DNA from: a virus
Taxonomy: Duplodnaviria > Caudoviricetes
Virus record (IMG/VR): IMGVR_UViG_3300020193_000029
Location: 1 to 54,549 of that record
Direction: 5' to 3' (one strand)
Length of the DNA stretch: 54,549 nucleotides
Each line of letters opens with the position of its first letter. Positions within the stretch are counted from its first letter, which is position 1. Made by a program: the position numbers and the translations under genes. Of the stretch, positions 15,901 to 44,879 are shown one piece after another. The notes beneath the pieces were generated by a model, which was not told the DNA's origin, ran no database searches, and worked only from the letters and a program-made list of their open reading frames with translations.

Positions 15901-18900
15901 GCCAATATCGACACTACAGTAATTAAAGAGGGCGACCCGGCATACGCATCCATGAAAGCAGGCGGAAAGACACTGATGGAGAACATCAGAATCCGTTATG
16001 CCAAAACTGGATTAAACGAAGTTCAATTAACTGAAGAAGCTATTGCCGAGGCGTATCGCCTATGGGCTAAACATGGCAACAAGTTTGTTGCTGGTAAGCC
16101 TGCCAGTCTCTTCAAGAGAATTCTGAATTACATCAAGTCGTTTGCCAGTGCGTTTAAGACATCTGGCGCGACTAACGTGGATCAGATCTTCTCGGCTATC
16201 CGAAGTGGAGAGATTGGTGCGCGTACCCCGGGCTTTTCTATCTTTAACCCAAGCGCAGAAGCTGCCATCAGATCTTTAAAGATCACTGATGAAAAGCAAT
16301 CGATAAAGATGATTACCGAAAGAGGCGGTCGTAACCGTGGGGTGCAGAAGTTTAAGAGTTCTGAGGATCTTGATGAGCCTGGTGAAATATCAAGAATGTC
16401 AGAAGCAGACGTTAAGCGCGTCAATGACTTCATGGAGTCTCATGTTGGCAACACGCCAAAGGGAGCTATACCGCGCTTCAACCCGAATGCGTCCAAGGAA
16501 GCCATCAATGCCGCATTGAATTTTGAGATTGACGGCAATGAGCCTGAGCTTCCTGACTTCGCCAAGAAGTACATGATCTCCACGATCCAAGAAGAAGAGA
16601 TCCCAAACAATGTCATCGGAAAGGAAGCTGCCCGTCATGGTCGAATCAAGACTGAGCCGGTCACACTTTCTGAGAAGTCTATCGATCTCATTGAGAGCTG
16701 GAAGTTAGGCGGCTTTAGCGAAGACTTCGATAATTTCTCGCGTGTATTCCGTAAGGCAGTGGTCGATCGATACAACGAGTTCCGCAGACAAGAGACCGAA
16801 ATGGTTGGAACTGAGAACGAAGGACTGCTCCAGGCAGAGACTTCAGCCAGTTCCGCTCTTGGTATGCTTGATCGGGCCAGAGGCGTTGTGGCGCAGATGC
16901 TCAACAGGGGCGGCATCCGCTGGGTCACTGGTGACCAAATGGTGACTAATGATCCTACCCAGTTCAAGGATGATGAACTCGCTGGTTACTACGAGATCGA
17001 TCCGAGTGTACCTGGGCTACTCGATAGTCTGAGTAAGGTCATGGATGGCTCTGTCCCGAAGGGGCTTAGCGTCTTTAAGACCTACTCTACCTTCAAGCGT
17101 ATCCAAGGCTTTAGATCGCGCGCTAGAGAGGCGGCGATTCGTCTAGCCAATATGGATCAGGCAGCAAACCCTGTTGAAGCTGCGGCACTTAAGACAATTA
17201 TCGAGGCTGAAAAGAAAGCCAGACTAATTGATAACCCAAGCGATGCCAGGATTAGTGAGTTCATCGCTGAAGTTGAAACGGACTATCCACAGGTTAAAGA
17301 AGCCTACGATAACTATCAGAAGTGGAACTCAACGCTGATTGATTTCGGTAAGGCTACGGGCATCCTGACTGAGGAACTCGCTCAGGAATGGAAAGAATGG
17401 GGTGATTACTTCCCGTTCTACGAGGAAATGGAAGAGTCAATCGTTGGGGGAATGGGTTACAAGCGAGGCTCTTCGCTTACCCGATCTGACTTTTTCTTCA
17501 AGGAACTAGAGAATCGCGCCAAGGATCTCGACCAAGCTGATCCGTTTGAGATGATTACCAAGAATGCTTATGGCATCTTGGTGTCAGGCCTTAAGAACGT
17601 CGCGGCTCGTCGCATCATGCGTAACTCCGAGGCCGTGGGCGAGGCAAGAAAGGTGCCTGACGCAAAGGCAGCGCGCGCACTTCGCAAGCGAGGCAGCTTT
17701 ACGCAGTCTGTCTTGGTCAACGGAATCGAGCAGCACTATGAGCTAGCAGATCCGCTGCTCTATGAGTCAATGATGAATTACGGTGAATCTGCTCTAGGCA
17801 TGATTACCAAGGTTGCATCGGCTCCCGCAAATCTCTTGAGAGAAATGGTTACTCGAGAACCAGGGTTTATCCTGCTGAACATGCTTCGCGATACGGTATC
17901 CACTTACGTGACAAGCGGCGTGGATTACATCCCATTCATTGATTCCTTCAAGGAGTTTAACTCCGAGGAGATGCAACGACTTCTCGATCAAGGTATTGTC
18001 GGTGGCTACGACCTATCAGCTGATCCGTCGGATCTGAAGCGATACGTGAAAAATGAATACCGCAAGCGCGGTATCGATGTGAAGAGTCATTCCCAGACAA
18101 GTAGCAACATGGTTCGTCAGTTGTGGGATGCACTGGGCGGGTACAGCCAGAAGTCTGACGCTGCGGTTCGTACTGCGGTGTACAAAAAAGTACTGGCTGA
18201 AACAGGCAGTGAGGCCACGGCGCGTCTTGCTGCCATCGACGTCATCAACTTTAGTCGTCGTGGTTCAAATCCCCTTTGGAGATCCATCACCGCCACGATT
18301 CCATTCTTGAATGCTCGTATCCAAGGTCTGGATAAGATCTATACCACGCTTGCTGGTAAATACAGTCCGTATGATGGGCTTGATCCTCGAGTCCTGACTC
18401 AAAAGAGGGCGTTGCTGAGAGGCGGGGCTATTGCGGCAATGACCGGAATTTACTACCTGCTGATGAGTGACAACGAGGAATACAAGAAAGCGCGTCGAGA
18501 GGTTCGCGATGACAACTGGCTAGTCCCGATACCTGGAGTTAAAGGCGTTACCCTCAAGTTGCCGATCCCGTTTGAAATCGGAGCAATCTTTAAAACTGTT
18601 CCTGAGATTTTCTTAAATTTTATATTTGGTGATCTCGACGCTAGAGGGGTAAGAGATAGCCTTGTCAGGCAGATCAACAACTCCACGAACATTGACTTGC
18701 TTGGCTTCCAAGCTATCAAACCAATCGTGGATCTTATGCGTAACAAAGATAGCTTTACGGGTAAAGAGATTGTCCCATACTGGGTCAATAAGAGTACCGA
18801 AGCAGCTAAGCAGTATGATGACCGTACCACTGAGATCTCTAAGTTGATTGGTGGACTGTTGAATTTCAGCCCAATGAAAATTGATTACCTTATCGGTGGA

Positions 18901-19419
18901 TATGGTGGCTCGCTTGGAACCTCGCTACTGCTAAGTGCCAACGCAGCCTGGGAGCAGGCAAGTGGCAGCAAGACAGCGGGTACTCGAGCAGACTGGACAG
19001 ATATCAATAACGTCCCGGTGATTCGCCGCTTCCTGATGGATACCCGCCTGGGCGGAGTTGGGACTAGGGTGCAGCAGGATTACTACGAGCTTCGCGATGA
19101 AGTCATAAAGGTTGTCGCGACGCTTAATAAGTTCAAGAAAGATGAGGATGTAGACGGTTACTACGCCTACCAAAACTCTAAGATTGGACTACTCAGCGTC
19201 CGTCAAGAAGTTCTGGCAATTGATAAATACCTCAAGCGATACAGAGATACGAGAGATGCGCTTCGCAAGAGCGATCTGCCGCCAGAAACAATACGTAAAC
19301 TCCTGCGTGAGATTGAAGCAGAAAAGAACCTGCGTCTGACGGTCGTGCCAGTCCTCAGAGAGGAGGCAGAAATACCGCCCCGTATCGGGTCGGCTATCTT
19401 TGATGCCTTTATTGGTTAG
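12901..19419 (+). CDS. Large polyvalent virion protein with a zincin-like HExxH motif and a C-terminal LPD38-like domain
   Basis: 2172 aa; NHEIIHAM...EEAIAE metallopeptidase-like motif; INFSRRG...IPFLNARIQGLDK...KLPIPFEIG...SPMKIDYLIGGYGGSLG resembles LPD38. Confidence 0.8.
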   Translation: MAVGNVPTGRKTLRLPDGSVFEVPENLTDQDRYQIRLDLANRFPDEYGSLLDPYQTFAGGTSEFFKGIPRGAASSLVSAAQGITGLLTPGVETEVEKNLSSFQSYLEKESPLAPDEAYQDFFASKLGAGLGSFATYALPGGAAKLLGASATGTAARSAGMALAGAGGAGTQAQRIEEQRKIGEEVTLGEELGALAIGTGIGFTELFPVERLFRKVTPDTGSALLNIFSRVDKRSPLAGTTADNITRLVKGAASQGLAEGLQEGLSGIGQDLASKITYDEDIEVGGSFLDDLMVGGGVGAIADVIVDAMGGRRSVSNKLLEDKERKLRENRINRLNQKQAELAAERNAEAAAKLLASQPAPLALPSPGQVTGGTYLPTMDTAEGVYSVSLKNNPDRFTQVVVFNTPDPSGTRFTTLAFNPESNQYYDITEDLSSGRSVNDALTISISGDLGVISKDIDPRQTALGFSALTNQIGVSKNANIPTISQESLVTDINNGRVVPVSEDGFFKINPLPNNEFTIVDMTRGLPVADFNRDEPPIVRFESINDAYAELKALNDTKSALASNNTLTFTGLIRNNPAFRLARMLRSPENRMIQKSVVSAFIENKEDRAGLKSFYSPEETKKIIGPRKFDDMMQQYGQIIDRSNVIQNYIPNAAEIDPTKRSISPQKLKQLGQDKNLDIDINNNNFKTFAKYWTGTSNWADMSNGQRLYVMSRIAETEAMPQRVKFPNLFQRQYNKSQFDTVIAEMARGENGVTPKVNVADIQRIAGVDKNAAKQIYDDLIYSGRAKPLPPGKIQLIKSEQDYLNEQRLKATQIDVPLDERTRDTETAQQAANRMREAGFSEESVARVEQSIKQKPTVPVKPNEATAAIVGEAVTRGEQAVAEGANPQDEKVAVDFSAKMADMLNRLGVAKLIKHRVEISKPKVLGKTKEGLKVTALGGFDAINREISVNIRKQLDNKNLTEQQIVDYINEIVNHEIIHAMREADLITEVEWNILSNFVRNANIDTTVIKEGDPAYASMKAGGKTLMENIRIRYAKTGLNEVQLTEEAIAEAYRLWAKHGNKFVAGKPASLFKRILNYIKSFASAFKTSGATNVDQIFSAIRSGEIGARTPGFSIFNPSAEAAIRSLKITDEKQSIKMITERGGRNRGVQKFKSSEDLDEPGEISRMSEADVKRVNDFMESHVGNTPKGAIPRFNPNASKEAINAALNFEIDGNEPELPDFAKKYMISTIQEEEIPNNVIGKEAARHGRIKTEPVTLSEKSIDLIESWKLGGFSEDFDNFSRVFRKAVVDRYNEFRRQETEMVGTENEGLLQAETSASSALGMLDRARGVVAQMLNRGGIRWVTGDQMVTNDPTQFKDDELAGYYEIDPSVPGLLDSLSKVMDGSVPKGLSVFKTYSTFKRIQGFRSRAREAAIRLANMDQAANPVEAAALKTIIEAEKKARLIDNPSDARISEFIAEVETDYPQVKEAYDNYQKWNSTLIDFGKATGILTEELAQEWKEWGDYFPFYEEMEESIVGGMGYKRGSSLTRSDFFFKELENRAKDLDQADPFEMITKNAYGILVSGLKNVAARRIMRNSEAVGEARKVPDAKAARALRKRGSFTQSVLVNGIEQHYELADPLLYESMMNYGESALGMITKVASAPANLLREMVTREPGFILLNMLRDTVSTYVTSGVDYIPFIDSFKEFNSEEMQRLLDQGIVGGYDLSADPSDLKRYVKNEYRKRGIDVKSHSQTSSNMVRQLWDALGGYSQKSDAAVRTAVYKKVLAETGSEATARLAAIDVINFSRRGSNPLWRSITATIPFLNARIQGLDKIYTTLAGKYSPYDGLDPRVLTQKRALLRGGAIAAMTGIYYLLMSDNEEYKKARREVRDDNWLVPIPGVKGVTLKLPIPFEIGAIFKTVPEIFLNFIFGDLDARGVRDSLVRQINNSTNIDLLGFQAIKPIVDLMRNKDSFTGKEIVPYWVNKSTEAAKQYDDRTTEISKLIGGLLNFSPMKIDYLIGGYGGSLGTSLLLSANAAWEQASGSKTAGTRADWTDINNVPVIRRFLMDTRLGGVGTRVQQDYYELRDEVIKVVATLNKFKKDEDVDGYYAYQNSKIGLLSVRQEVLAIDKYLKRYRDTRDALRKSDLPPETIRKLLREIEAEKNLRLTVVPVLREEAEIPPRIGSAIFDAFIG

Positions 19420-21046: not shown

Positions 21047-21076
21047 AAAAAACCCCCACCCCTTTCGGGGTGAGGG
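21047..21076 (-). terminator. Intrinsic terminator downstream of the SSB gene
   Basis: CACCCC-TTTC-GGGGTG stem with an adjacent A6 run (U-tract on the minus strand). Confidence 0.65.
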
Positions 21077-27663: not shown

Positions 27664-27697
27664 AAAAAAAAGGCCCGTCAGGGTTACCCGACGGGCC
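27664..27697 (-). terminator. Intrinsic terminator
   Basis: GGCCCGTC...GACGGGCC stem with an A8 run on the plus strand (U-tract on minus). Confidence 0.75.
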
Positions 27698-33388: not shown

Positions 33389-34327
33389 TTAAACGGAAGG
33401 AATGTTGAACGGCGAGAGTCCCTCCTTGTCGAAGAGATCATCGATCCATTGAGTGGCAGTGACCGGATTATCAGCAACGATCTCGGCTACTGCTTCTTCA
33501 TCCTCGTAGCAATAGGCAAGCAGAGCCGATGCTTTCCACGGCGCGTCGATTACCCACTGCTCGAGATTGTTGTTGAGCCAAGAGTTGTAGGCGGCTTTCA
33601 CAATCGGTCTTATCGATTGCTTGTTGTCCACCTTGATCGTCGCGCCTGTCGACTTTGCTCCCTGAAGATAACTCCTGTCGTAACTGTAGCCCGTGTCCCA
33701 GTCGTAGGAGTCGTATTCGGTGTACCAGCGATTGCCGTAGTAGCCGCCAGCGGCAGCGGTCTTGACACCGAAGCGATGCGGCGACCATGCGTAGGTGTTA
33801 GACAGCCATGCGTGGTTGTACTCGATACCGCTCTGGCGATTGATGATGACAGCATCACCGTTGCCGGTCATGAAACCGAACTTGTTGCCGTTGCCGATGA
33901 GACTGCCCAAGAACGCCTGATAGGACGGGTCGAGGATACGGTCAGGCTCGTAAGCAAGTACGGGTTGGATGATGTGCCGAATGAAGTGCCAGGTATCGGA
34001 CTTGGTTTTGTCGCTGTCGTTGCCCGATGAGAGGATGCCGTTGTGAGACATCCAAATACGGCTTGTTACGAAGTAGGGGTGGCAGTTCTCAAGATCGATG
34101 TCGCCGTGGGTCTGCATACGGGCGTGCCAGATGCAGTCACGACCGTCGGCGTATTGGAGATAGAACTCGATGAAGTCTGCGGCACTGACGGGCAGCAGTT
34201 TCTTGACGATCACATGACCGGCTTCGGCATACATGATGCCAAGACCGTCTTTGTTCTTGCTGTAAACGTCAGTCAAGAACTCGTCAGAGAAGTTGGTTTC
34301 TGAGGTTTGTTGTACTAACAGACACAT
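33389..34327 (-). CDS. Class II (Ntn) glutamine amidotransferase-like protein
   Basis: N-terminal MC, N.DG.G, H.R..THG.....NCHP., HNG and SDT motifs; AAGGAG RBS. Confidence 0.85.
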   Translation of the reverse strand: MCLLVQQTSETNFSDEFLTDVYSKNKDGLGIMYAEAGHVIVKKLLPVSAADFIEFYLQYADGRDCIWHARMQTHGDIDLENCHPYFVTSRIWMSHNGILSSGNDSDKTKSDTWHFIRHIIQPVLAYEPDRILDPSYQAFLGSLIGNGNKFGFMTGNGDAVIINRQSGIEYNHAWLSNTYAWSPHRFGVKTAAAGGYYGNRWYTEYDSYDWDTGYSYDRSYLQGAKSTGATIKVDNKQSIRPIVKAAYNSWLNNNLEQWVIDAPWKASALLAYCYEDEEAVAEIVADNPVTATQWIDDLFDKEGLSPFNIPSV

Positions 34328-34344
34328 GGTCTTTACTCCTTGGT

Positions 34345-34361
34345 TGATAACAGTGTTATGA
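34345..34361. promoter_or_regulatory. Palindromic box between amidoligase and amidotransferase (TGATAACAGTGTTATGA)
   Basis: One mismatch to consensus; between a stop codon and an RBS. Confidence 0.8.
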
Positions 34362-34365
34362 AATA

Positions 34366-35766
34366 TCAGGCGGCATCGGACATATCGATGCGACCTGACA
34401 TCCGGCTATTGAAGTACTTTCGGAATATCTTTGTCTCCTCTGGTAGATTGCTTTGACAGAATGATAGGAATTGTGGCGATGTGAGGTCGCGCAGACTTGC
34501 GACAGAAGGTCGCGTGTACTCGATGATGGCGTTACAGAACTCGACGGCAGCGATGACTGCTTCGTACTTGAGACTGCCTCTGAACATTCTGAACTCGATG
34601 GTTTTTCGGTTGGTGAGATTGACTGCCTCGTATCGATCACCACTGCGGCAGTCCTTGACCTTCTTGGATTTGATCTGACAGAAGCCAGAGGCGTAGCGTC
34701 TTGCGACGCTGCGGATAAACATCTCGTTTCTGGGATCGTTGATGAAGGAGACGATCTTGCCGATCTGTAGGTCAGTCATGTTGGATCGACTGACATGGAC
34801 ATGGAGTCCGCAGGAGGTGGTGTTGTGGGATTTGAGGTTGCGGGTAAGGCTCTTATCTTCGAGGAACTTGAAGAGTTCACGTTGGGCAGGCAAGGACATG
34901 GGCTGCGTGATCATCTCGAAGCCATGACTTAGCGACCCGTCATTCTCGAAGAACATCCTATCGAGAAGTTTGGGGTCATTGACGCGATCGCTGATAGCCT
35001 TGGCGTTCGCCTGCCTGTCGCCGTCTATGTTCTCGACCTCGAGTTCTACGCCGAAGAATCGGTTGTGCTTAATCGTCCAATCGTCTCTGATGAAACTGAA
35101 CTTGTCTTTGGATGAGTGGTAATTGCGGATGACGCGATCCCGGCGTCTGTAGTCTTGGTGATAGAAGATACCTTCTTCTTCATCTTCCTCAAAGTCGCCG
35201 TTCTCGTAACTGACAACGACCTCGTTGCCGAAATTGTCTATCGCATTGACGGCGTAGTCTCTGTGAATGTAAGTGTCTTCGTATTCCGACCAGCGGTAAT
35301 GCCTCTCACGACAACTCTCGCAGATGGCGTTGTCGTAGGAATAGGACATATCGTCTGATGGGAATGACTCATCGCATGAAGAACATTGTATGATGTTGTA
35401 GTGATCGTTGATGAAGTCCATTGTCTCGTCGAAGTCGTCTGCGTTCGAGTTAACGTGCATCACGCAACTGTCATAGTTGCTTCTGCGGCATAGCGCGTGA
35501 AAGAGTGCGGTGAAGTAGGTGGAGTTGTTCTCCTCGCACTGCTCTGCGATGACTCGCAGGATAGTACTCGATTGAGAGTAAGTGAGTATCTTGTCAGACG
35601 TTGCGTACCGTGCAGTGTTCACCCTTGTCGCACAATGGTCAAAGAAGTTTCGAGCGAGGGCAGGACGTCTTAGCGAGTAATCGTAGAAGCGTTTGCCGAA
35701 TGCTAGTAGTAACAGATGGTCGTTTGCCAATCGACGTGCGATAGGCAGTTCAAAGAAATGAGCCAT
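34366..35766 (-). CDS. Putative amidoligase (COOH-NH2 ligase) with N-terminal Zn-ribbon repeats
   Basis: FFGVELEVE, DGSL..GFEMITQP, SCGLHVHVSR, RY.AVN...TIEFRMFRG motifs; two CxxC pairs upstream. Confidence 0.85.
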   Translation of the reverse strand: MAHFFELPIARRLANDHLLLLAFGKRFYDYSLRRPALARNFFDHCATRVNTARYATSDKILTYSQSSTILRVIAEQCEENNSTYFTALFHALCRRSNYDSCVMHVNSNADDFDETMDFINDHYNIIQCSSCDESFPSDDMSYSYDNAICESCRERHYRWSEYEDTYIHRDYAVNAIDNFGNEVVVSYENGDFEEDEEEGIFYHQDYRRRDRVIRNYHSSKDKFSFIRDDWTIKHNRFFGVELEVENIDGDRQANAKAISDRVNDPKLLDRMFFENDGSLSHGFEMITQPMSLPAQRELFKFLEDKSLTRNLKSHNTTSCGLHVHVSRSNMTDLQIGKIVSFINDPRNEMFIRSVARRYASGFCQIKSKKVKDCRSGDRYEAVNLTNRKTIEFRMFRGSLKYEAVIAAVEFCNAIIEYTRPSVASLRDLTSPQFLSFCQSNLPEETKIFRKYFNSRMSGRIDMSDAA

Positions 35767-35779
35767 TGTCTTTACCTCT

Positions 35780-35796
35780 TCATAACAGTGTTATGT
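35780..35796. promoter_or_regulatory. Palindromic box upstream of the amidoligase (TCATAACAGTGTTATGT)
   Basis: Abuts the RBS. Confidence 0.8.
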
Positions 35797-36372: not shown

Positions 36373-36600
36373 TTAACCCTCCTTCCTTTTATGTTCAGTG
36401 CAGCCAAAGTCAGGGCGGGTAAACAAAGCGGCAAACCATTCCTCATTGTCTTTCACATAGAACTTGCTGGGTATCTCCACCACGTTTCCGTTTTCATTTG
36501 TCTCCCAAAACCTGACAACCTTGCGGCAGGTGCCTAGGTCTGAGTTGACCGTCCATCTCCCCCAATATTTGCAGGTGCTGCAAGTGATATTGCCAACCAT
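36373..36600 (-). CDS. Small Cys-containing hypothetical protein
   Basis: CxxC...C...T.PDFGC..H; AAGGAG RBS. Confidence 0.7.
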   Translation of the reverse strand: MVGNITCSTCKYWGRWTVNSDLGTCRKVVRFWETNENGNVVEIPSKFYVKDNEEWFAALFTRPDFGCTEHKRKEG

Positions 36601-36613
36601 AGTCTTTACTCCT

Positions 36614-36630
36614 TCATAACAGTGTTATGA
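36614..36630. promoter_or_regulatory. Palindromic box (TCATAACAGTGTTATGA)
   Basis: Perfect copy exactly between a stop codon and the AAGGAG RBS. Confidence 0.85.
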
Positions 36631-36867
36631 CTAATCGAACTTGGATCGGTCACGGGTCTGACCGTTGTTGAGCAAGGTGGGAGATGCACCGAGGTTGAGT
36701 GCCTGATCGTAGAGTTTGACTGCCTCGATGCGATCCCCAACGACAATGACCTGTCCGCTCACGCGGATAGACCAGTGGGAACGTCCATTCAACTTCGCTC
36801 TCGTCAAGACCTTGTTGGTCGTGGAGGGATTGCGGAGTCGATGGAGAGTCTGAATGTCGAGATTCAT
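36631..36867 (-). CDS. Hypothetical protein; first gene of the early operon
   Basis: GGAG RBS at 36876-36879 precedes the ATG at 36867 (MNLDIQTL...). Confidence 0.55.
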   Translation of the reverse strand: MNLDIQTLHRLRNPSTTNKVLTRAKLNGRSHWSIRVSGQVIVVGDRIEAVKLYDQALNLGASPTLLNNGQTRDRSKFD

Positions 36868-36886
36868 GGCGATTACTCCGTAGGTG

Positions 36887-37500
36887 AAAAGGTATCGAGC
36901 AGATACCCACGGTCGCCCTACGCTCACGACGTAAGGCGACCTAGGCTATCCACTAGGGTTGCTAGCAGGGGTAGCGATGTATGCGAATACTCGGTCTGCC
37001 CGTCGATCGCGCGCAGAAATACCTAGGCATCAGTCAAGTGCTAGGGATGCGCGCAGGGTATGACCTACCGTCGCAGGACGTATGTTGCCCGTCCGTACCG
37101 GCTCTTGGAATGAAAGACCTAGACGCAGGCTTGCAGAGGCTTAGCATGGAACGACTGGCTAACCCAGTGTAGTGCCAGCGAGTGCCATAGCTAGCCTCTC
37201 GCCGCGAGTGATCCATCTGTCCGTTATCGGATGCCTAACACCTTTTTGTTGTCTGCAATACCGTTGCCGACTTGTCGTCTTTCACTCACCACGCGACATT
37301 GGGTTCGCGTCACCCGCCCGTACTTTGCGTATCTAGGCTAGGTCGATTGTCGGTCGACCCCGTGGCTATACCACCACGACTTTCTAGGTCAGAGCGTCAC
37401 GCTGCGATAACTCACTACACGCGCTACAAAGACCTATCCGTATGGGCAGTGCGTTGTCGGTTCATAACAGTGTTATGAACAGAATTTCAATCGACACTAC
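36887..37500 (-). ncRNA. Candidate large structured RNA or 5' leader (~600 nt)
   Basis: No credible ORF; more than 10 complementary stem pairs including long-range ones; lies between a consensus promoter and a hairpin plus U4. Confidence 0.6.
37460..37480. promoter_or_regulatory. Extended palindromic box (GTTCATAACAGTGTTATGAAC)
   Basis: 10-1-10 palindrome ~30 bp downstream of the promoter -10. Confidence 0.85.
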
Positions 37501-37509
37501 CGCGCTAAC

Positions 37510-37538
37510 ATTATCTCATATGTATATACATATGTCAA
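37510..37538 (-). promoter_or_regulatory. Sigma70-type early promoter, TTGACA-N17-GATAAT
   Basis: Minus strand reads TTGACA tatgtatatacatatga GATAAT and points into the leftward early block. Confidence 0.85.
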
Positions 37539-37557
37539 GTACCTGTGACATTTATTT

Positions 37558-37574
37558 TCATAACAGTGTTATGA
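37558..37574. promoter_or_regulatory. Palindromic box (TCATAACAGTGTTATGA)
   Basis: Perfect copy ~20 bp upstream of the promoter -35. Confidence 0.85.
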
Positions 37575-37659
37575 GGAAAAATGCCAGGAGTAGATGGGTA
37601 GTGGTGTAGTGGTGTATAACGTCAGTGACTAGCAAAATGCCTACATCGAGGAAAGAATC

Positions 37660-38244
37660 GTGCCAACTAATAATCCGATTGGACAAGGGCTGCAACCACT
37701 GACCCCAAAATCCCTTAAATTCTGCGAGCTTGTGGCGAAAGGACATCGACCTAGCGAGGCGTACATCGAGGCGTATCGCATACAGGGGACTGCTAAGAAA
37801 AGGTCTATACAGGCAGCGGCGGCGCGGCTAACGGGCGATGCTAGGGTGCAGAGGCAAGTGGCGAAGTTGAAGGAGAAGGACGCAACGGCGGCTTTTCAAC
37901 AGGCGATTGGGCTGCGGCAGTGGACGCTCGACAGGCTGAAGGAGGAGGCGAGTAACCGGAAAAGCCCACCGGCTGCGAGGGTGTCAGCACTTGGGGTGCT
38001 GGCGAGAGCGTCCCGTCTGATCGATGGCAGTAACCAGCAGAACGTCAGCGTGAATGTGGCGACTGTCAGCAGATCGTTAGCGGATATCGAGAGCGAATTG
38101 CTCGAGCGTCTGTCGAGGGTGAGCGAAGCGTCTGTCGAGCCGAGCGTCTGTCAGGAGAATATCGAGGAGGGGGAAATCCTGGGCGAGGATGAGCCGCAGG
38201 ACGATGAGGAAATCAAGGGCGAAAAAAAACCCCGAGAGCCGTAG
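37660..38244 (+). CDS. terS: Putative terminase small subunit
   Basis: LTPK..KFCELVA.G...SEAY..AY......AA.RL....V HTH pattern, AARV.AL..L motif, acidic tail. Confidence 0.7.
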   Translation: MPTNNPIGQGLQPLTPKSLKFCELVAKGHRPSEAYIEAYRIQGTAKKRSIQAAAARLTGDARVQRQVAKLKEKDATAAFQQAIGLRQWTLDRLKEEASNRKSPPAARVSALGVLARASRLIDGSNQQNVSVNVATVSRSLADIESELLERLSRVSEASVEPSVCQENIEEGEILGEDEPQDDEEIKGEKKPREP

Positions 38245-38759: not shown

Positions 38760-38902
38760 TGTCTTTTTACTCCTGAAAAAAAAAACGTCAGTAACCCGCC
38801 GGAATTATTCCGGAAAGTTTGACGCACAACTTGTTAAAAAATGGGTGCTATCGCCACGGGATACCCCACTTACAAGTATATACATATTATCGCTTATGTC
38901 CA

Positions 38903-38919
38903 TCATAACAGTGTTATGA
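38903..38919. promoter_or_regulatory. Palindromic box (TCATAACAGTGTTATGA)
   Basis: Perfect copy upstream of the leftward gene 38262-38759. Confidence 0.85.
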
Positions 38920-39556: not shown

Positions 39557-41065
39557 TTGATTAAGTTTTCCCCTGAATCCTTGAAGTCCATGCTGGGGGG
39601 TTTCTCTGCTCAAGAGAAAGCCGAGTTATTAACCCTTCTGGAAGAATGGGAAAAAGCCAAGGAACGAGAATCCTCTCAGAGGCAGTTCATTCCGTTCGTG
39701 AAGACCTTGTGGCCGGCTTTCATCGAAGGTGAGCATCACCTGATCATGGCCAAGGCTTTCGAGAAAGTGGCTCGGGGTGAGTGCAAGCGCATGATCATCA
39801 ACATTGCGCCTCGTCACACCAAGTCTGAGTTTGCCTCCTACATGCTTCCAGCGTGGTTCCTAGGGAACTACCCGAACAAGAAGGTCATTCAGTGTAGCCA
39901 TACCGCAGAGTTGGCAGTGGGGTTTGGACGCAAGGTGCGTAACCTCGTCGCCTCTGAGGACTACCGCAAGATCTTTCCAGATGTCGCCTTGCAGCAAGAT
40001 TCCAAAGCTGCAGGACGGTGGAGTACTAACCAGAATGGGGAGTATTTCGCCATCGGTGTAGGCGGTGCGGTAACTGGTAAAGGTGCGGATCTGCTCATCA
40101 TCGATGATCCGCATTCCGAACAGGAAGCCGCCCTGGGTGATCCTTCGGTCTACAACAAGACCTATGAATGGTACACCTCCGGTCCTCGGCAGCGTTTGCA
40201 GCCAGGAGGGGCAATCATCGTTGTAATGACCCGCTGGCATCAGCGAGATCTGACCGGCAGGGTTTTAAAGTCCTCGATTGAGCGAGGCGGCACTGATGAA
40301 TGGGAGGTCATTGAACTTCCCGCCATCTTGCCTTCAGGCAATCCTCTGTGGCCTGAGTTCTGGTCGCAAAAAGAGCTTGAAGCGATTAGAGCTGAACTGC
40401 CCGTTGCCAAGTGGTCAGCGCAGTACCAGCAAAATCCAACTGCCGAAGAAGGGGCGTTGGTTAAGCGTGAGTGGTGGCGAATCTGGGACAAAGAATCCCC
40501 GCCTGTGTGTGATTTTATTATTCAGTCCTGGGACACTGCCTTCACCAAGAAGCAAACCTCGGACTACTCCGCCTGTACCACCTGGGGTGTCTTTAAGCAC
40601 CCCACGCCAGAAACAGGGGTGCTAGGAACGCATATCATTCTGCTCGATGCATACAAAGAGCGAATGGAGTTCCCAGAGCTTAAGCGCAAGGCTTACGAGA
40701 TGTATGAGCAGTACCGACCCGATGCGTTTATCGTTGAAGCTAAAGCCGCTGGCGCGCCTCTGATTTATGAACTTCGCGCAATGGGGATTCCTGTAGCCGA
40801 GTACACCCCCTCAAGGGGGAATGACAAGGTGGCAAGAGTCAATGCGGTCAGTGATCTTTTCTCTAGCGGGAATGTCTGGTGTCCACCGACCCGTTGGGCA
40901 GAGGAAGTGGTTGAAGAGTTTGCAGCGTTCCCTAACGCCGAGCATGATGACTTGGTGGACTCGAGTACCCAAGCCCTACTGAGATTTAGGCAGGGCGGGT
41001 TTATTTCTATTGAAACCGATGAGCCGGTGTCCAGGTTACCTAGGCGTCGCTCAAACTATTATTGA
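39557..41065 (+). CDS. terL: Terminase large subunit
   Basis: IINIAPRHTKS Walker A variant, TGKGADLLIIDDP Walker B, VMTRWH, IQSWDTA..., HDD.VDS nuclease motif. Confidence 0.95.
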   Translation: MIKFSPESLKSMLGGFSAQEKAELLTLLEEWEKAKERESSQRQFIPFVKTLWPAFIEGEHHLIMAKAFEKVARGECKRMIINIAPRHTKSEFASYMLPAWFLGNYPNKKVIQCSHTAELAVGFGRKVRNLVASEDYRKIFPDVALQQDSKAAGRWSTNQNGEYFAIGVGGAVTGKGADLLIIDDPHSEQEAALGDPSVYNKTYEWYTSGPRQRLQPGGAIIVVMTRWHQRDLTGRVLKSSIERGGTDEWEVIELPAILPSGNPLWPEFWSQKELEAIRAELPVAKWSAQYQQNPTAEEGALVKREWWRIWDKESPPVCDFIIQSWDTAFTKKQTSDYSACTTWGVFKHPTPETGVLGTHIILLDAYKERMEFPELKRKAYEMYEQYRPDAFIVEAKAAGAPLIYELRAMGIPVAEYTPSRGNDKVARVNAVSDLFSSGNVWCPPTRWAEEVVEEFAAFPNAEHDDLVDSSTQALLRFRQGGFISIETDEPVSRLPRRRSNYY

Positions 41066-42404: not shown

Positions 42405-44879
42405 ATGGCCATCGACAAGGCACTGGTTCCACTCATTCCAGATGACCCTGATGCTCAAGCCGCAGAGCTTGAGATCGAGGTAATTGCCATGGGCGATGAA
42501 GCCCCGGCAATGACCATCAACGAAGATGGCAGTGTTGAGATTGATATGGGCGGTGGTGAGTCGGATGCCGACTCGGGGGATCACTATGCAAACCTTGCCG
42601 AAGTCATCGATGAGTCAGAACTTGAAAGCCTTGCCAATGAACTCGTTGGATACTACGAAGCCGACAAGAACTCCAGAAAAGACTGGGAGCAAACCTACAT
42701 CAAAGGGCTTGATCTCCTGGGACTTAAAATTGAAGATCGAACTGAACCCTGGCCGGGGGCCTGCGGAGTATTCCACCCTCTCTTAACCGAAGCCGTGGTG
42801 CGCTTCCAAGCGCAAGCCATCACTGAAATGTTTCCCGCACAGGGACCAGTTCGAGTTGTGGTGGTGGGCAAGCAGACCCAGGATAAAGATCGACAGGCTC
42901 TGCGTGTGCAGGATTACATGAATTATCTTCTTACCGAGAAGATGACTGAGTATCGATCTGAAACCGAAAAGATGTTGTTCTCACTGGCTTTGGCAGGCAG
43001 TGCTTTCCGCAAAGTCTATTACGACCCGCAGCTTAAGCGTCCGGTTTCAATGTTTGTCCCGGCTGAAGATCTCGTAGTCTCATACGGTGTTAGCGATCTT
43101 GAAACCGCAGAGCGTGTCTCGCATGTGATGCGTAAAGCGAAAAACGATATCCGAAAGCTTCAAGTAGGCGGGTTCTATCGCGATGTATATCTTGGTGATC
43201 CGCAAGATGACATCAGCCAGATCAGAGAAAAGGAAGATAAGCTCTCTGGAGTCTCGGCAAGTTATGAAAGCGACAACCGTTACACCCTTATCGAAATGAT
43301 GGTTGACCTCGACCTGCCCGGGTTCGAGGACATGAAAGATGGTGAGCCAACGGGTATCGCGTTGCCCTATGTCGTGACTGTCGATAAAGGGTCGCGCAAG
43401 GTTCTCGCTATTCGCAAGAACTGGAATGAAGAAGATCCAGAGAAAAAGAAGCGAGATCATTTTGTTCATTACCGCTACCTCCCGGGAATGGGCTTCTATG
43501 CTTTCGGCTTGATCCATCTGATTGGTGGACTAGCAAAAAGTGCAACGAGTATTCTTCGGCAGTTGGTCGATGCGGGAACCCTATCAAATCTCCCGGGCGG
43601 CTTGAAAGCCAGAGGTCTTCGCATTAAAGGCGACGACACGCCAATTGCTCCAGGTGAGTTCCGCGATGTCGATGTCCCGGGAGGCAGCATCCGCGACAAC
43701 ATTACGTTCCTGCCTTACAAGGAACCCTCGGCAGTGCTTTATACGCTGCTGAATAACATCGTCGAGGAAGGTCGTCGCTTTGCTTCCTTGGCCGATATGA
43801 AGGTAGCGGATATGAACGCCGAAGCCCCAGTCGGCACGACGCTTGCCATTTTGGAACGCACCATGAAAGTGATGAGTGCCATCCAAGCAAGACTTCATGC
43901 CTCGCTTCGGCAAGAACTCAAGTTGCTCTCGGGTGTGATCCGCGACTACGACGAACCGGTATACCCCTATGAGACCCCGGGTGGGGAAGATGTCAAATCG
44001 CAAGATTTTGATGATCGAGTAGATGTCATCCCGGTCAGTGACCCTAATGCTAATAGCATGGCTCAACGCATTATGCAGAGCCAAGCAGCGCTGCAGTTAT
44101 CGATATCTGCCCCGCAGATCTATGACATGAAGGTTCTCCACCGCCAGATGCTTGAGAGCATGGGCGTTAAGAACGTCGATGAGATTATTAAACCTGATGA
44201 TGGTGAAACTCCGGCTGATCCAGTTCAGGAAAACATGAACGCCATTAACCTTAAACCGATTAAGGCGTTTAGCTACCAAGATCATGACGCGCACATTACT
44301 GCGCATATGACCTTTATGCAAAGTCCTGCATTTATGGGGCTTGAGAAAACCCCGATGTTCCCTGCCATTTCTTCTGCGATGGATGCGCATATTCGCGAAC
44401 ACATCGCCTTTCAGTACAGGCAGAGGGTTGAGCAAGAGATGGGTATTCCGCTTCCGCCCGATGAGGAGATCCTGCCAAAGGATATCGAGAAGCGCATTAG
44501 CGGCTTGATTGCTGCCGCATCGACTCAAGTCCTCAACAAGGAAACGGCAGAAATGCAGGCTCAGAAAAACATGGCTGCGATGCAAGATCCCATCGTTCAA
44601 CAGAAAGAGAAGGAATTGCAGATCCGCGCTATGCAAGCGCAAAACAAGATGCAAGTGGATATGGCAAAACTTCAGCTGGACGCTCAGAAGTCCAGGGCAA
44701 AGGATGCCATCGAGATCGAGCGAATCAATGCCCAAGAGAGAATGGCTCAGCAAGCGGTCCAGCAACGTATTCTGGATACCGCCATTGATGCCCAGATTGA
44801 GCAGGCAAAGATCGACTCGCAAGAACTTCAGAAGGGGGTCGACATTGGCTTTCAGGCGGCTAGAAACCGCAGGGAGTAA
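42405..44879 (+). CDS. Portal protein
   Basis: 824 aa after terL; SR.DWE..Y..GL.LLG...PW.GA.GV.HP.L.EA..RFQA, LRQLVDAGTLSNLPGG and a Gln-rich barrel tail. Confidence 0.9.
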   Translation: MAIDKALVPLIPDDPDAQAAELEIEVIAMGDEAPAMTINEDGSVEIDMGGGESDADSGDHYANLAEVIDESELESLANELVGYYEADKNSRKDWEQTYIKGLDLLGLKIEDRTEPWPGACGVFHPLLTEAVVRFQAQAITEMFPAQGPVRVVVVGKQTQDKDRQALRVQDYMNYLLTEKMTEYRSETEKMLFSLALAGSAFRKVYYDPQLKRPVSMFVPAEDLVVSYGVSDLETAERVSHVMRKAKNDIRKLQVGGFYRDVYLGDPQDDISQIREKEDKLSGVSASYESDNRYTLIEMMVDLDLPGFEDMKDGEPTGIALPYVVTVDKGSRKVLAIRKNWNEEDPEKKKRDHFVHYRYLPGMGFYAFGLIHLIGGLAKSATSILRQLVDAGTLSNLPGGLKARGLRIKGDDTPIAPGEFRDVDVPGGSIRDNITFLPYKEPSAVLYTLLNNIVEEGRRFASLADMKVADMNAEAPVGTTLAILERTMKVMSAIQARLHASLRQELKLLSGVIRDYDEPVYPYETPGGEDVKSQDFDDRVDVIPVSDPNANSMAQRIMQSQAALQLSISAPQIYDMKVLHRQMLESMGVKNVDEIIKPDDGETPADPVQENMNAINLKPIKAFSYQDHDAHITAHMTFMQSPAFMGLEKTPMFPAISSAMDAHIREHIAFQYRQRVEQEMGIPLPPDEEILPKDIEKRISGLIAAASTQVLNKETAEMQAQKNMAAMQDPIVQQKEKELQIRAMQAQNKMQVDMAKLQLDAQKSRAKDAIEIERINAQERMAQQAVQQRILDTAIDAQIEQAKIDSQELQKGVDIGFQAARNRRE

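Follow-up and report, generated by a model that had tools for sequence, protein, structure and literature searches.

A large structured RNA at the head of the early operon of lake-water phages, a candidate cis-acting leader

The window (the whole 54,549-nt stretch of phage DNA that was analysed) carries a structured element of about 637 nt on the minus strand, at 36868–37504, between a sigma-70 promoter and the first early gene. Judging from sequence comparison, the element represents a genuine family of large structured RNA that had not been catalogued before: it is longer than 400 nt, multi-domain, supported by covariation and non-coding, and in this descriptive sense is a large ornate structured RNA. 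The function that we favour, tentatively and at somewhat less than an even chance, is that of an early leader acting in cis, which would antiterminate on the host transcription complex.

Two features delimit the element:

37510–37538, minus strand: early promoter TTGACA-N17-GATAAT, matching 11 of 12 sigma-70 consensus positions, with an extended -10 TG.
36631–36879, minus strand: Shine-Dalgarno GGAG (36879–36876) and first early gene, ATG at 36867, encoding 78 aa of no known family.

The RNA 5′ end would lie about 7 nt past the -10 box, and the 3′ limit was set at the base preceding the first-gene ATG. The promoter, which the initial annotation had placed at 37538–37510, was found there and is kept with its spacer in every homologue checked for a promoter; its hexamers and spacer, the latter holding the palindrome ATATGTATATACATAT, are nearly invariant across lineages A, B, C and E. 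It is the strongest promoter-like site of the region, and the element it drives comes first in the early unit. The order promoter, element, Shine-Dalgarno and ATG is found in all six lineages, and a terminator scan called none between the element and the first gene. The genes that follow the element match no Pfam family. They encode a 73–81-aa protein in lineages A, B and E (carrying GQVIVVGD in A and B), whereas lineage C has another gene in this place and the most distant lineage, L099, a third. Because the downstream gene changes between lineages, the element appears to travel with the promoter and not with one gene. The window contains no tRNA or tmRNA.

The region had initially been described as lacking a credible ORF, and this holds for 36868–37504, where the longest internal ORFs span 60 aa (minus strand) and 68 aa (plus strand). 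Each forward frame contains 5–16 stops in all 14 homologues (9–14 in the window itself), and each reverse frame of the window element 7–10. ORF positions and frames vary among lineages, and no open frame is conserved in position and phase among the 14 homologues. In the L014 group, one reverse frame has a single stop.

Homologues were found in 13 further IMG/VR contigs and 11 metagenome loci, and the carriers are lake-water phages. The 21 sequencing runs listed for the sequence comprise no RNA run. The distinct homologous sequences number 14, in five sublineages, with lengths of 476–640 nt as aligned (including the 3-nt start codon of the first gene); L099 is one additional, very distant copy. 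At the nucleotide level, the element is conserved at least as well as the genes on either side: identity between the window and L014 is 90.9% in the element, 69.7% in the first gene and 86.4% in terS, the corresponding values against L018 are 71.3%, 56.9% and 68.8%, and L018 and L133 share 79.3% in the element and 65.6% in the first gene.

Among 80 TerL loci, the element occurs only in those that are at least 82% identical and span the right region. It is present in none of 11 loci of amidoligase relatives, and covariance model R1 found the core of the element in none of 72 other loci (74 sources in all, many lacking the relevant region). A blastn search of cultured phages gave no match for a 1.2-kb region and chance matches only (E = 5) for the 142-nt core; the nearest cultured terminases, from phage 023Pt_psg01, Pelagibacter phages HTVC027P and HTVC023P and phage DSL-LC04, are 53–58% identical. 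Two core patterns scanned against 185,579 species genomes in a search for hosts and prophages found nothing, and the loosest core pattern added no contig. The pattern GACAAGTCGG...ACAAAAAGG occurred in five extra contigs (loci L106, L109, L112 and L114, and contig 3300012232) that had neither nhmmer nor R1 support; since roughly 7 chance matches are expected for this pattern, these contigs were dropped as chance.

The dense folding reported in the initial annotation beats that of shuffled sequences, but on both strands. The minus strand folds at -247.2 kcal/mol with a z score of -3.77 (0/20 shuffles as stable) and the plus strand has a z of -3.19. Sub-domains gave z scores of -2.59 (1/200 shuffles) and -2.34 (4/200 shuffles), and the homologue L018 one of -5.57 (0/100 shuffles). 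Covariation among homologues is strong. RNAalifold, with 7 sequences, returned 103 pairs, 36 of them with compensatory changes. A consensus over 14 sequences comprises 132 pairs in 25 helices and is 93.7% paired, compared to 34.6–40.9% in slid controls; 45 of its pairs are changed on both sides, against 5–10 in the controls, and because the 14 sequences represent only five or six lineages, many of these compensatory cells are inherited and not independent. None of 500 shuffles attained the observed values. Insertions and deletions are located at helix tips. Parts of the 5′ domain are not reliably aligned by MAFFT, and helices 3, 4, 7 and 21 are just 73–84% paired. Since adding L099 worsened the MAFFT alignments, this copy was left out of A6 and A9 and tested apart with R1.

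Several measures distinguish the two strands. Consensus pairs include 211 G-U cells and 19 A-C cells, and an excess of G-U this large indicates an RNA read from the minus strand. The alignment folds at -233.9 on the minus strand compared to -192.4 for the reverse complement, the covariance term of the same helices is 133.5 (mirrored, 41.3), and the asymmetry matches the direction of the promoter. These data bear on whether the region might act as DNA (a replication origin, a packaging site by terS or a recombination hotspot) or as an unrecognised protein-coding gene. Its distance of about 150 bp from the divergent terS, the better-than-shuffled folding of both strands and the single-stop reverse frame of the L014 group could be read that way. 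However, the strand asymmetry points to RNA, the compensatory changes keep helices and not codons, and the stops and unconserved ORFs described above stand against a gene, so that we regard a DNA-level or coding role as very improbable. An attachment site or a host-gene mimic was also considered for the core and rejected; there was no integrase among the proteins scanned, and the core motif is missing from the 185,579 species genomes, so that it does not correspond to a host gene used for attachment.

The consensus resolves the element into the following parts, given 5′ to 3′ along the RNA:

37340–37378, minus strand: two adjacent 5′-domain hairpins, CGUGG/CCACG (37378–37374 with 37365–37361) and GGGUCGA/UCGACCU (37360–37354 with 37346–37340).
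37291–37310, minus strand: hairpin ACGCGA/UCGCGU, which reads ACGCAG/CUGCGU in L014 and L015 (two compensatory changes).
37107–37288, minus strand: central domain, closed by a 12-pair long-range helix (37288–37277 with 37118–37107).
37268–37258 with 37132–37122, 37243–37240 with 37140–37137 and 37235–37232 with 37146–37143, minus strand: inner helices of the central domain.
37149–37217, minus strand: lineage-specific expansion hairpin of 69 nt, seen as a blastn gap and in alignments.
36973–37103, minus strand: three-way-junction core, nearly invariant in all lineages.
37103–37097 with 36978–36973, minus strand: core closing helix AGC-CGGU/AUCGCU.
37094–37076, minus strand: core hairpin GGACG/CGUCC with the 9-nt loop GGCAAYRUA.
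37075–37071 with 36986–36982, minus strand: core helix UGCGA/UCGCA.
37070–36987, minus strand: variable arm of the core.
36899–36953, minus strand: 3′ domain, one long and irregular 19-pair hairpin in which the internal motif CCUAGG/CCGUGG is conserved.
36887–36907, minus strand: hairpin GGUAUC/GAUACC followed by U4, in lineage A only, overlapping the 3′ strand of the 3′-domain helix.

In the 5′ domain, helices 5 and 6 (37340–37378) have 3/6 and 5/7 pairs changed on both sides, with 100% of cells paired. Counterparts of the ACGCGA/UCGCGU hairpin in other lineages are the analogous GCGUGU/ACACGC or AUGGGU/ACCCAU. Both-sided changes affect 5/12 and 5/9 pairs of central-domain helices 10 and 12 and one pair each of helices 13 and 14. 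The 69-nt expansion is absent from L014, L015, L118 and L116, and other inserts replace it elsewhere; its stem ACUGG/CCAGU (helix 16, 37168–37164 with 37158–37154) has 3/5 pairs changed on both sides. Compensatory variants GGACA/UGUCC, GGAUG/CAUCC and UGCGG/CCGCA occur within the core. Helix 23 of the 3′ domain is paired in 97% of cells, with 7/19 pairs changed on both sides, and L120 has an insertion at the tip of this hairpin. The invariant junction and loop strings of the element are GACAAGUCGG and ACAAAAAGG, both in the central domain, GGCAAYRUA and AGUAUCCGCAUA. The palindromic tetranucleotide CTAG is found 10 times in the element, whereas 640 nt of the window contain 1.47 on average.

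Eight of the pairings initially proposed for this region are backed by compensatory changes: GGTCGCC/GGCGACC, GGACG/CGTCC, CTGGC/GCCAG, TTGCAGA/TCTGCAA, TGAAAGAC/GTCTTTCA, ACGCGA/TCGCGT, GGTCGA/TCGACC and CGTGG/CCACG. The remainder fared less well. GCGCGCA/TGCGCGC is present, but only in the lineage of the window and within the variable arm, and the 15-bp AGAGGC.../...GCCTCT helix, although it too can be found, involves the 69-nt lineage insertion that L014, L015 and L118 lack, and competes with conserved helices. CCTAGACGCA/TGCGTatCTAGG is ambiguous, with one compensatory change set against two disruptions in L014. In L124, L014, L015 and L118, a G-to-A change without compensation breaks the supposed long-range pair CTGCCC/GGGCAG. 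The GGTATC/GATACC hairpin with U4, described initially as the end of the element, is missing in lineages B, C and E, and was not called as a terminator. Pseudoknots or alternative partners had been suggested for 37111–37127; a column covariation scan lent them no support. Besides 229 chance-like single column pairs, which show how cheaply single columns covary in these data, it returned just two stacks of 2 pairs each, located in the 5′ region, and thus no evidence for pseudoknots.

The lineage A hairpin is relevant to whether the leader could be a sensor, riboswitch-like or otherwise responsive to a ligand or state, that decides whether early transcription continues. In the window lineage, one strand of the 3′ helix (36908–36899) overlaps the 5′ arm of the hairpin plus U4 (36907–36902), and therefore both cannot form together; in group A, these exclusive 3′ helices could provide the switch. 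However, lineages B, C and E lack the hairpin plus U4, which does not qualify as a terminator, no known riboswitch model matches, and known riboswitches are several times smaller. A sensor thus seems decidedly unlikely.

The early promoter is accompanied by palindromes:

37559–37573, no strand assigned: perfect 15-bp palindrome CATAACAsTGTTATG, which precedes the -35 box by 20 bp, with 8 copies in the window compared to 0.07 expected.
37463–37477, minus strand: second copy of this palindrome, about 27–41 nt into the transcript, which as RNA makes a 6-bp hairpin with a 3-nt loop.

The upstream copy is conserved in homologues, with a central triplet specific to each lineage, and by its sequence looks like an operator. 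The helix columns of the second copy (40–45/49–54) never vary, and are thus uninformative for or against RNA structure. Three early genes further downstream (36615, 35781 and 34346) likewise have this palindrome immediately ahead of AAGGAGTAAAGAC-ATG. N4-like hairpin promoters were considered for the palindromes and set aside, as the 2172-aa protein found matches only among families of unknown function.

Palindromes of this kind would suit a 5′ UTR that controls stability or translation of the early mRNA, either as a 5′ stabiliser that protects it from RNase E or as a platform on which a phage regulator binds CATAAC-NNN-GTTATG hairpins. Consistent with this, a palindrome lies near the leader 5′ end in all lineages, lineages B, C and E hold a second one at the tip of the core variable arm with the same lineage triplet in both, and the copies before the three downstream start codons recall such a use. 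Group A, including the window, lacks the core-arm palindrome, however, and L099 keeps the core although its palindrome is a different one. Conservation and covariation lie in parts other than the palindromes, some 130 conserved pairs would be more than a stabiliser or a hairpin bound by a protein requires, and the gene after the element differs between lineages. We therefore consider control through the UTR unlikely.

Known RNA families were searched with the covariance models of Rfam 15 (4227 families), membership being defined by the gathering threshold of each family. Neither the whole window nor 9 homologous loci gave a match at these thresholds, which were also not reached by the models for group I and II introns, RNase P, tmRNA and riboswitches. 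With permissive filters, the interval 36600–37800 matched three miRNA models only (E 7.6–9; 15.5–16.7 bits, compared to gathering thresholds of 63–100), and these are chance matches. The models for GOLLD, ROOL, OLE, HEARO and raiA showed no similarity, even at E values up to 10. The original proposal of a large structured phage RNA of no known family is thus supported by folding, covariation, the lack of a conserved frame and the lack of an Rfam match.

The most distant copy of the element provides further insight. R1, built without L099, finds the L099 core with 38.8 bits (E 4.5e-8) in a leader of 527 nt with a fold z of -3.65. The phage that carries it (G001) has a TerL 20–21% identical, and no other blastp match at E below 1e-4. 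Because the same core is found in the early leader of a phage with no detectable common proteins save a very distant terminase, its binding partner is most likely a host component, not a phage protein. One may go further and picture the invariant three-way junction as a module exchanged among unrelated lake phages, which alone would capture a host machine as the first product of infection; this is a possibility we hold doubtful. The machine may be RNA polymerase, or a defence or RNA-processing factor. If true, such a module would either surpass by far the size of every known RNA-only antiterminator or be the first large RNA decoy produced by a phage.

Under the function we favour, host sigma-70 RNA polymerase would transcribe the element as the untranslated start of the leftward early operon, from a near-consensus early promoter bracketed by the two operator-like palindromes. 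From 5′ to 3′, the predicted fold has a variable domain of hairpins, the central domain with its long-range helix, the core built on a nearly invariant three-way junction, and a long hairpin whose end would lie 15–45 nt ahead of the first start codon. The nascent RNA might then stay on the host elongation complex and make it resistant to Rho and to intrinsic terminators, and the resistant polymerase would transcribe in full an early gene array of about 9–16 kb, as with HK022 put and conAn2.

The downstream terminator is the context in which this was assessed:

27672–27697, minus strand: strong intrinsic terminator, 11-bp stem and T8, about 9.2 kb downstream of the element, with three more same-strand genes beyond.

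In G003, a terminator that shares the T8 and has an almost identical stem core (CCCGTyGG/CCrACGGG) is located about 7.5 kb downstream of the element. A terminator on the same strand 9.2 kb on, with genes beyond it and a similar one in G003, weakly suggests a context for antitermination. On the other hand, the internal terminator at 27672–27697 may simply end the early operon, and the L099 phage has no comparably strong same-strand terminator downstream of its leader. We know of no RNA antiterminator that uses anything near 500–640 nt, and the multi-domain size and invariant junctions would seem to resemble ribozymes or ribonucleoprotein scaffolds more.

These last points lead to the main rival of a cis-acting antiterminator, a stable large RNA cut from the early transcript and acting in trans as a new counterpart of GOLLD and ROOL, which we consider conceivable, if on the whole improbable. 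Such an RNA might work as a ribozyme or scaffold, assemble into a particle by itself or, at the very start of infection, act as a decoy for a host factor (e.g. a defence protein), which it would titrate. Its size, multi-domain build, invariant strings and helix-tip expansions are typical of large functional RNAs and not of simple leaders, it would be the earliest product of the early unit, made from the strongest promoter-like site of the region, and a core common to an unrelated phage fits a host target. The 10 CTAG palindromes could in principle mediate self-association, and GOLLD, ROOL and OLE are reported to assemble into RNA-only homo-oligomers (PMC12286853). Against a trans-acting RNA, lineages B, C and E have no terminator or 3′ end of their own, the element running into the Shine-Dalgarno sequence; the consensus shows no palindromic hairpin loop for a kissing contact; and the models of GOLLD, ROOL, OLE, HEARO and raiA are unmatched.

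Few RNAs of bacteria and phages exceed about 400 nt and have a complex, well-supported fold, and most of these have proved to be ribozymes, ribonucleoprotein scaffolds or RNA-only assemblies (GOLLD, ROOL, OLE). The present element has three unusual traits: it is transcribed first, from an early promoter behind operator-like palindromes; it is better kept than the surrounding genes; and its 65–140-nt core is common to phages without detectable common proteins save a 20–21% identical terminase. This core is a compact module open to experiment.

Among known systems, the early leader of T7 (A1 promoter to gene 0.3, with its RNase III site) is an untranslated stretch of several hundred nucleotides after strong host-type promoters. 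The element likewise is a long untranslated stretch between a host-type early promoter and the first early gene, but its conserved feature is the fold, and to our knowledge no multi-domain conserved fold exists in the T7 leader. GOLLD, reportedly first seen in lake metagenomes, and ROOL are multi-domain, covariation-supported phage-associated RNAs of about 600–800 nt and unknown function. The element is also large, multi-domain, covariation-supported and phage-borne, and shares the lake origin of GOLLD; GOLLD and ROOL, however, are free-standing genes, whereas the element is a promoter-proximal leader without its own 3′ end.

The put RNA of HK022 binds the zinc-binding domain of the RNA polymerase beta-prime subunit, and suppresses pausing and termination without protein factors. 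It is about 70 nt with two stem-loops, lies just past the early promoters and acts alone on RNA polymerase, at terminators at least 10 kb off (PMC9378689). Like putL and putR, the element is promoter-proximal in a phage early unit, in all lineages; the strong terminator 9.2 kb further on lies at a distance comparable to the reach of put, and just as put needs no phage protein, the core of the element is common to phages without common proteins except a very distant terminase. In contrast to put, the element has 476–640 nt, at least four domains and about 130 pairs; there is no resemblance in architecture, and it is by architecture, not by sequence alignment, that the two are set apart. The conAn2 regions of pLS20 family conjugative plasmids are 260–600-bp leader regions with antitermination activity (PMC8191782); like EAR, they are long UTRs that head very long operons and allow terminator read-through, while conAn2 sits after conAn1, requires the protein ConAn1 for action at a distance and is poorly conserved, at 30–40% sequence identity. 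The element is similarly a long untranslated leader heading a long operon, with no evident ConAn1-like partner; unlike conAn2, it directly follows the promoter with no intervening gene, is highly conserved and has an invariant core. If RNA polymerase does prove to be its target, the element would join the RNA-only antiterminators, of which very few are known (put, EAR and conAn2).

The element, a stretch at 36868-37504 on the minus strand, lies between a promoter and the first early gene and, judged by its sequence, appears to define a new family of large, structured RNAs in phages that matches nothing in Rfam 15. A search of the whole window gave no match at gathering thresholds, and a search of 36600-37800 gave three chance miRNA matches only (E 7.6-9), in keeping with the initial annotation, which had recognised no known family. 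No description of the family was found in the literature searched, a result that cannot prove its absence from print. What sets the element apart is its place as a promoter-proximal leader and a core common to unrelated phages.

The promoter and the lack of a credible ORF before the first early gene, both noted initially, were borne out. The promoter matches the consensus at 11 of 12 positions and carries a TG before the -10 box, while the longest ORF between it and the first gene is at most 68 aa when both strands are considered. No reading frame is conserved among the 14 homologues: each forward frame contains 5-16 stops in every one, and both the beginnings and the ends of ORFs fall at differing alignment columns between lineages. 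Reverse frames contain 7-10 stops each in the window; in the group of homologous locus L014, one reverse frame is interrupted by just one stop. The main features around the element are:

37538-37510, minus strand: promoter TTGACA-N17-GATAAT
36879-36876, minus strand: GGAG preceding the first early gene
36867, minus strand: ATG of the first early gene, as read from the sequence
37660-38244, rightward: terS, right of the element
39557-41065, rightward: terL, right of the element
42405-44879, rightward: portal gene, right of the element

The record (54,549 bases, IMG/VR virus) is ~90% complete according to CheckV. To the left of the element, small genes of unknown function form a leftward array, after which come an amidoligase, a glutamine amidotransferase-like gene and an HNH endonuclease and, farther along, an exonuclease and a Sak-like annealing protein. 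The closest cultured terminases, 53-58% identical, are those of phage 023Pt_psg01, Pelagibacter phages HTVC027P and HTVC023P, and phage DSL-LC04. The public runs that contain the sequence are all DNA metagenomes from lake, river or lagoon. Within the early operon (33389-35766, minus strand), the amidoligase (Pfam Amidoligase_2, E 1.2e-9) adjoins the weak class-II glutamine amidotransferase-like gene, a pair that hints at a role in modifying metabolites or macromolecules. The structural region encodes two giant proteins, of 2172 and 1404 aa (12901-19419 and 5732-9946, plus strand), whose sole matches, where there are any, are to PHROG families of unknown function.

A terS search yielded two contigs with upstream DNA, L014 and L015, whose non-coding region matches at ~86-92% in blastn and lacks 69 nt (window 37149-37217). 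In this alignment the non-coding stretch is visibly more conserved than the 78-codon gene that follows. Further homologues came from TerL loci and from DNA-pattern scans of IMG/VR and a metagenome collection; the core is carried by 13 IMG/VR contigs besides the window's own and by 11 metagenome loci, some of which may be the same contigs in both collections. Once identical copies were removed, 14 distinct full-length sequences remained, in five sublineages:

Lineage A: window, L124
Lineage A': L014, L015, L118
Lineage B: L018, L120, L121, L122, L105, L116
Lineage C: L065, L102
Lineage E: L133

A sixth, very distant copy is L099 (the same as L125 and L128). Two scans of prokaryote genomes, one per species for 185,579 species, gave no match, and none was found in cultured phages. 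In all pairs tested, the element is at least as conserved as neighbouring coding DNA.

Identity over aligned positions
Window and L014: element 90.9%, first gene 69.7%, terS 86.4%
Window and L018: element 71.3%, first gene 56.9%, terS 68.8%
L018 and L105: element 92.4%, first gene 90.1%, terS 90.0%
L018 and L133: element 79.3%, first gene 65.6%

The dense structure proposed initially was upheld both by folding and by covariation. On the minus strand a 643-nt stretch folds at -247.2 kcal/mol (z -3.77), a stability that none of 20 shuffles exceeded, and single-sequence folds of L018 (z -5.57) and L099 (z -3.65) were each beaten by 0 of 100. RNAalifold on seven sequences gave 103 pairs, 36 of them with compensatory change. 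In a MAFFT alignment of the 14 sequences (A6), the consensus comprises 132 pairs in 25 helices. Standard pairs fill 93.7% of 1791 cells, compared with 34.6-40.9% in controls whose 3' partners were slid by 1-3 columns. Pairs changed on both sides numbered 45 versus 5-10 in the slid controls, the covariation score was 0.322 versus 0.044-0.093, and 0 of 500 column shuffles reached the observed values. All of these counts come from homologues that form five or six lineages, so cell counts overstate independent events. The hairpin ACGCGA/UCGCGU, already noted, becomes ACGCAG/CUGCGU in the L014/L015 alignment, where GAAAGAC/GUCUUUC likewise becomes CAAAGAC/GUCUUUG. The best-supported helices, all on the minus strand, are:

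37378-37361 and 37360-37340: two 5' hairpins
37288-37277 with 37118-37107: 12-pair long-range helix closing the central domain
37268-37258 with 37132-37122: helix within the 12-pair closing helix
37094-37090 with 37080-37076: core hairpin
37075-37071 with 36986-36982: helix UGCGA/UCGCA
36953-36932 with 36920-36899: 19-pair 3' hairpin

Helices 3, 4, 7 and 21 are weak (73-84% paired) and fall in regions where the MAFFT alignment of lineage A to the other lineages is poor. The homologues differ in length through insertions at the tips of helices: the 69 nt in the window, ~50 nt within the 5' domain in L018-type sequences, one in L116 and one at the 3' hairpin tip in L120. A scan of unpaired columns by the same criterion found 229 single column pairs that look covarying, but stacks of two pairs turned up just twice, each time in the 5' region. 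The argument for the fold is carried by the stacking of many covarying pairs into helices and by the slid controls. The motif CTAG occurs 10 times in 36865-37504 (mean 1.47 per 640 nt in the window; 10 copies reached in 2 of 540 sliding windows) and 3-10 times in homologues.

Since the plus strand also gives z -3.19, thermodynamics alone does not settle the strand. Consensus helices contain 211 G-U/U-G and 19 A-C/C-A cells, but this count is biased towards G-U because the consensus structure was predicted on the minus strand. In a fairer test, the alignment as given folds to -233.9 and its reverse complement to -192.4; the same helices, when mirrored to the opposite strand, give -79.9 versus -100.4, with a covariance term of 41.3 versus 133.5. 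This asymmetry, together with the promoter direction, indicates that the RNA is most probably a minus-strand transcript.

The most conserved part of the element is the core, a three-way junction (36973-37103, minus strand). Its closing helix pairs AGC-CGGU with AUCGCU; it further contains a 5-bp hairpin capped by the 9-nt loop GGCAAYRUA, a second 5-bp helix (UGCGR pairing with YCGCA) bordered by the conserved strings CGKUAR and AGUAUY, and a variable arm. L099 sits in G001, a complete phage record of 49,650 bases whose terminase is 21% identical to the window's; no other blastp match between G001 and the window's ORFs was found at E below 1e-4. G001 has a different near-consensus promoter and different flanking palindromes, then a 527-nt untranslated, stably folding region containing the same core. 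This copy was found by a covariance model of the core built from 11 sequences without L099 (38.8 bits, E 4.5e-8), and the match covers, besides the hairpin and the second helix, part of the closing helix. Outside the core, L099 and window-type leaders cannot be aligned. A core kept between phages sharing no proteins beyond a distant terminase would point to a host-encoded partner or a very recent transfer.

Palindromes recur around these leaders. G001 brackets promoter and leader with TTACTnAGTAA-type palindromes on the minus strand, mirroring the window's arrangement: upstream of the promoter (L099 ~1610-1650), near the leader 5' end and just before the ribosome-binding site (~1515-1545 and ~1040-1110, respectively). 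In the window, CATAACACTGTTATG (one copy ends ...TTATC) occurs on the minus strand at 36615-36629, 35781-35795 and 34346-34360, directly preceding a repeated translation-start cassette, AAGGAGTAAAGAC-N-ATG, of three successive early genes; more copies lie within genes at 24361 and 30288 and beside another promoter-like site, at 38904. This palindrome could serve as an operator or as an RNA hairpin bound by a translational regulator, or could be a module-shuffling repeat. Lineages B, C and E carry a second copy of their own palindrome as the tip of the core's variable arm (A6 columns 40-54 and ~600-620; L018, L065, L102, L105, L133). Its central triplet equals that of the lineage's 5' copy (TCG in C; ATT or AAT in B), a match that suggests co-evolution with a cognate binding protein. 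The early-promoter spacer holds a 16-base palindrome, ATATGTATATACATAT (37516-37532), nearly invariant among homologues, and a related string, ATATGTATATAC, lies in the promoter-like site upstream of a 165-aa gene (38880-38895).

The order is always promoter, element, ribosome-binding site. A terminator scan called none between element and first gene; the hairpin with U4 initially placed just before the ribosome-binding site is present in the window's lineage and confined to that lineage, A. The gene after the element differs among lineages. With the order fixed, no terminator called and the next gene varying, the element goes with the promoter or operon rather than with any single gene. We infer that it acts in cis on the transcribing polymerase, or in trans after processing. 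Ranked first, tentatively, is a cis action in which the RNA would modify the host elongation complex, since this fits the position, the independence from phage proteins, the untranslated length and the terminator context. A long untranslated stretch would otherwise invite Rho. Two strong intrinsic terminators divide the leftward array:

27672-27697, minus strand: 9.2 kb downstream of the element, with more same-strand genes after it
21053-21076, minus strand: second terminator

Their counterparts in phage G003 (locus L153, 7606-7631 and 14319-14341) lie at similar distances and have near-identical stems; the G003 terminator 7.5 kb downstream of the element shares the T8 tail of the one at 27672-27697 and differs little from it in the stem core. 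However, the downstream terminator may simply end the operon, and the L099 phage shows no comparable terminator.

Such an action has precedents. Leaders of 260-600 bp with antitermination activity are described for conAn2 (PMC8191782). As reported in PMC9378689, put is ~70 nt long, sits immediately downstream of PL and PR, and acts on its own with a range of at least 10 kb. The size and complexity of the element are far beyond what put needs, which counts against the cis action. The main rival, which we consider somewhat less likely, is that the element yields a large, stable RNA comparable to GOLLD and ROOL, which are described as forming RNA-only assemblies (PMC12286853).
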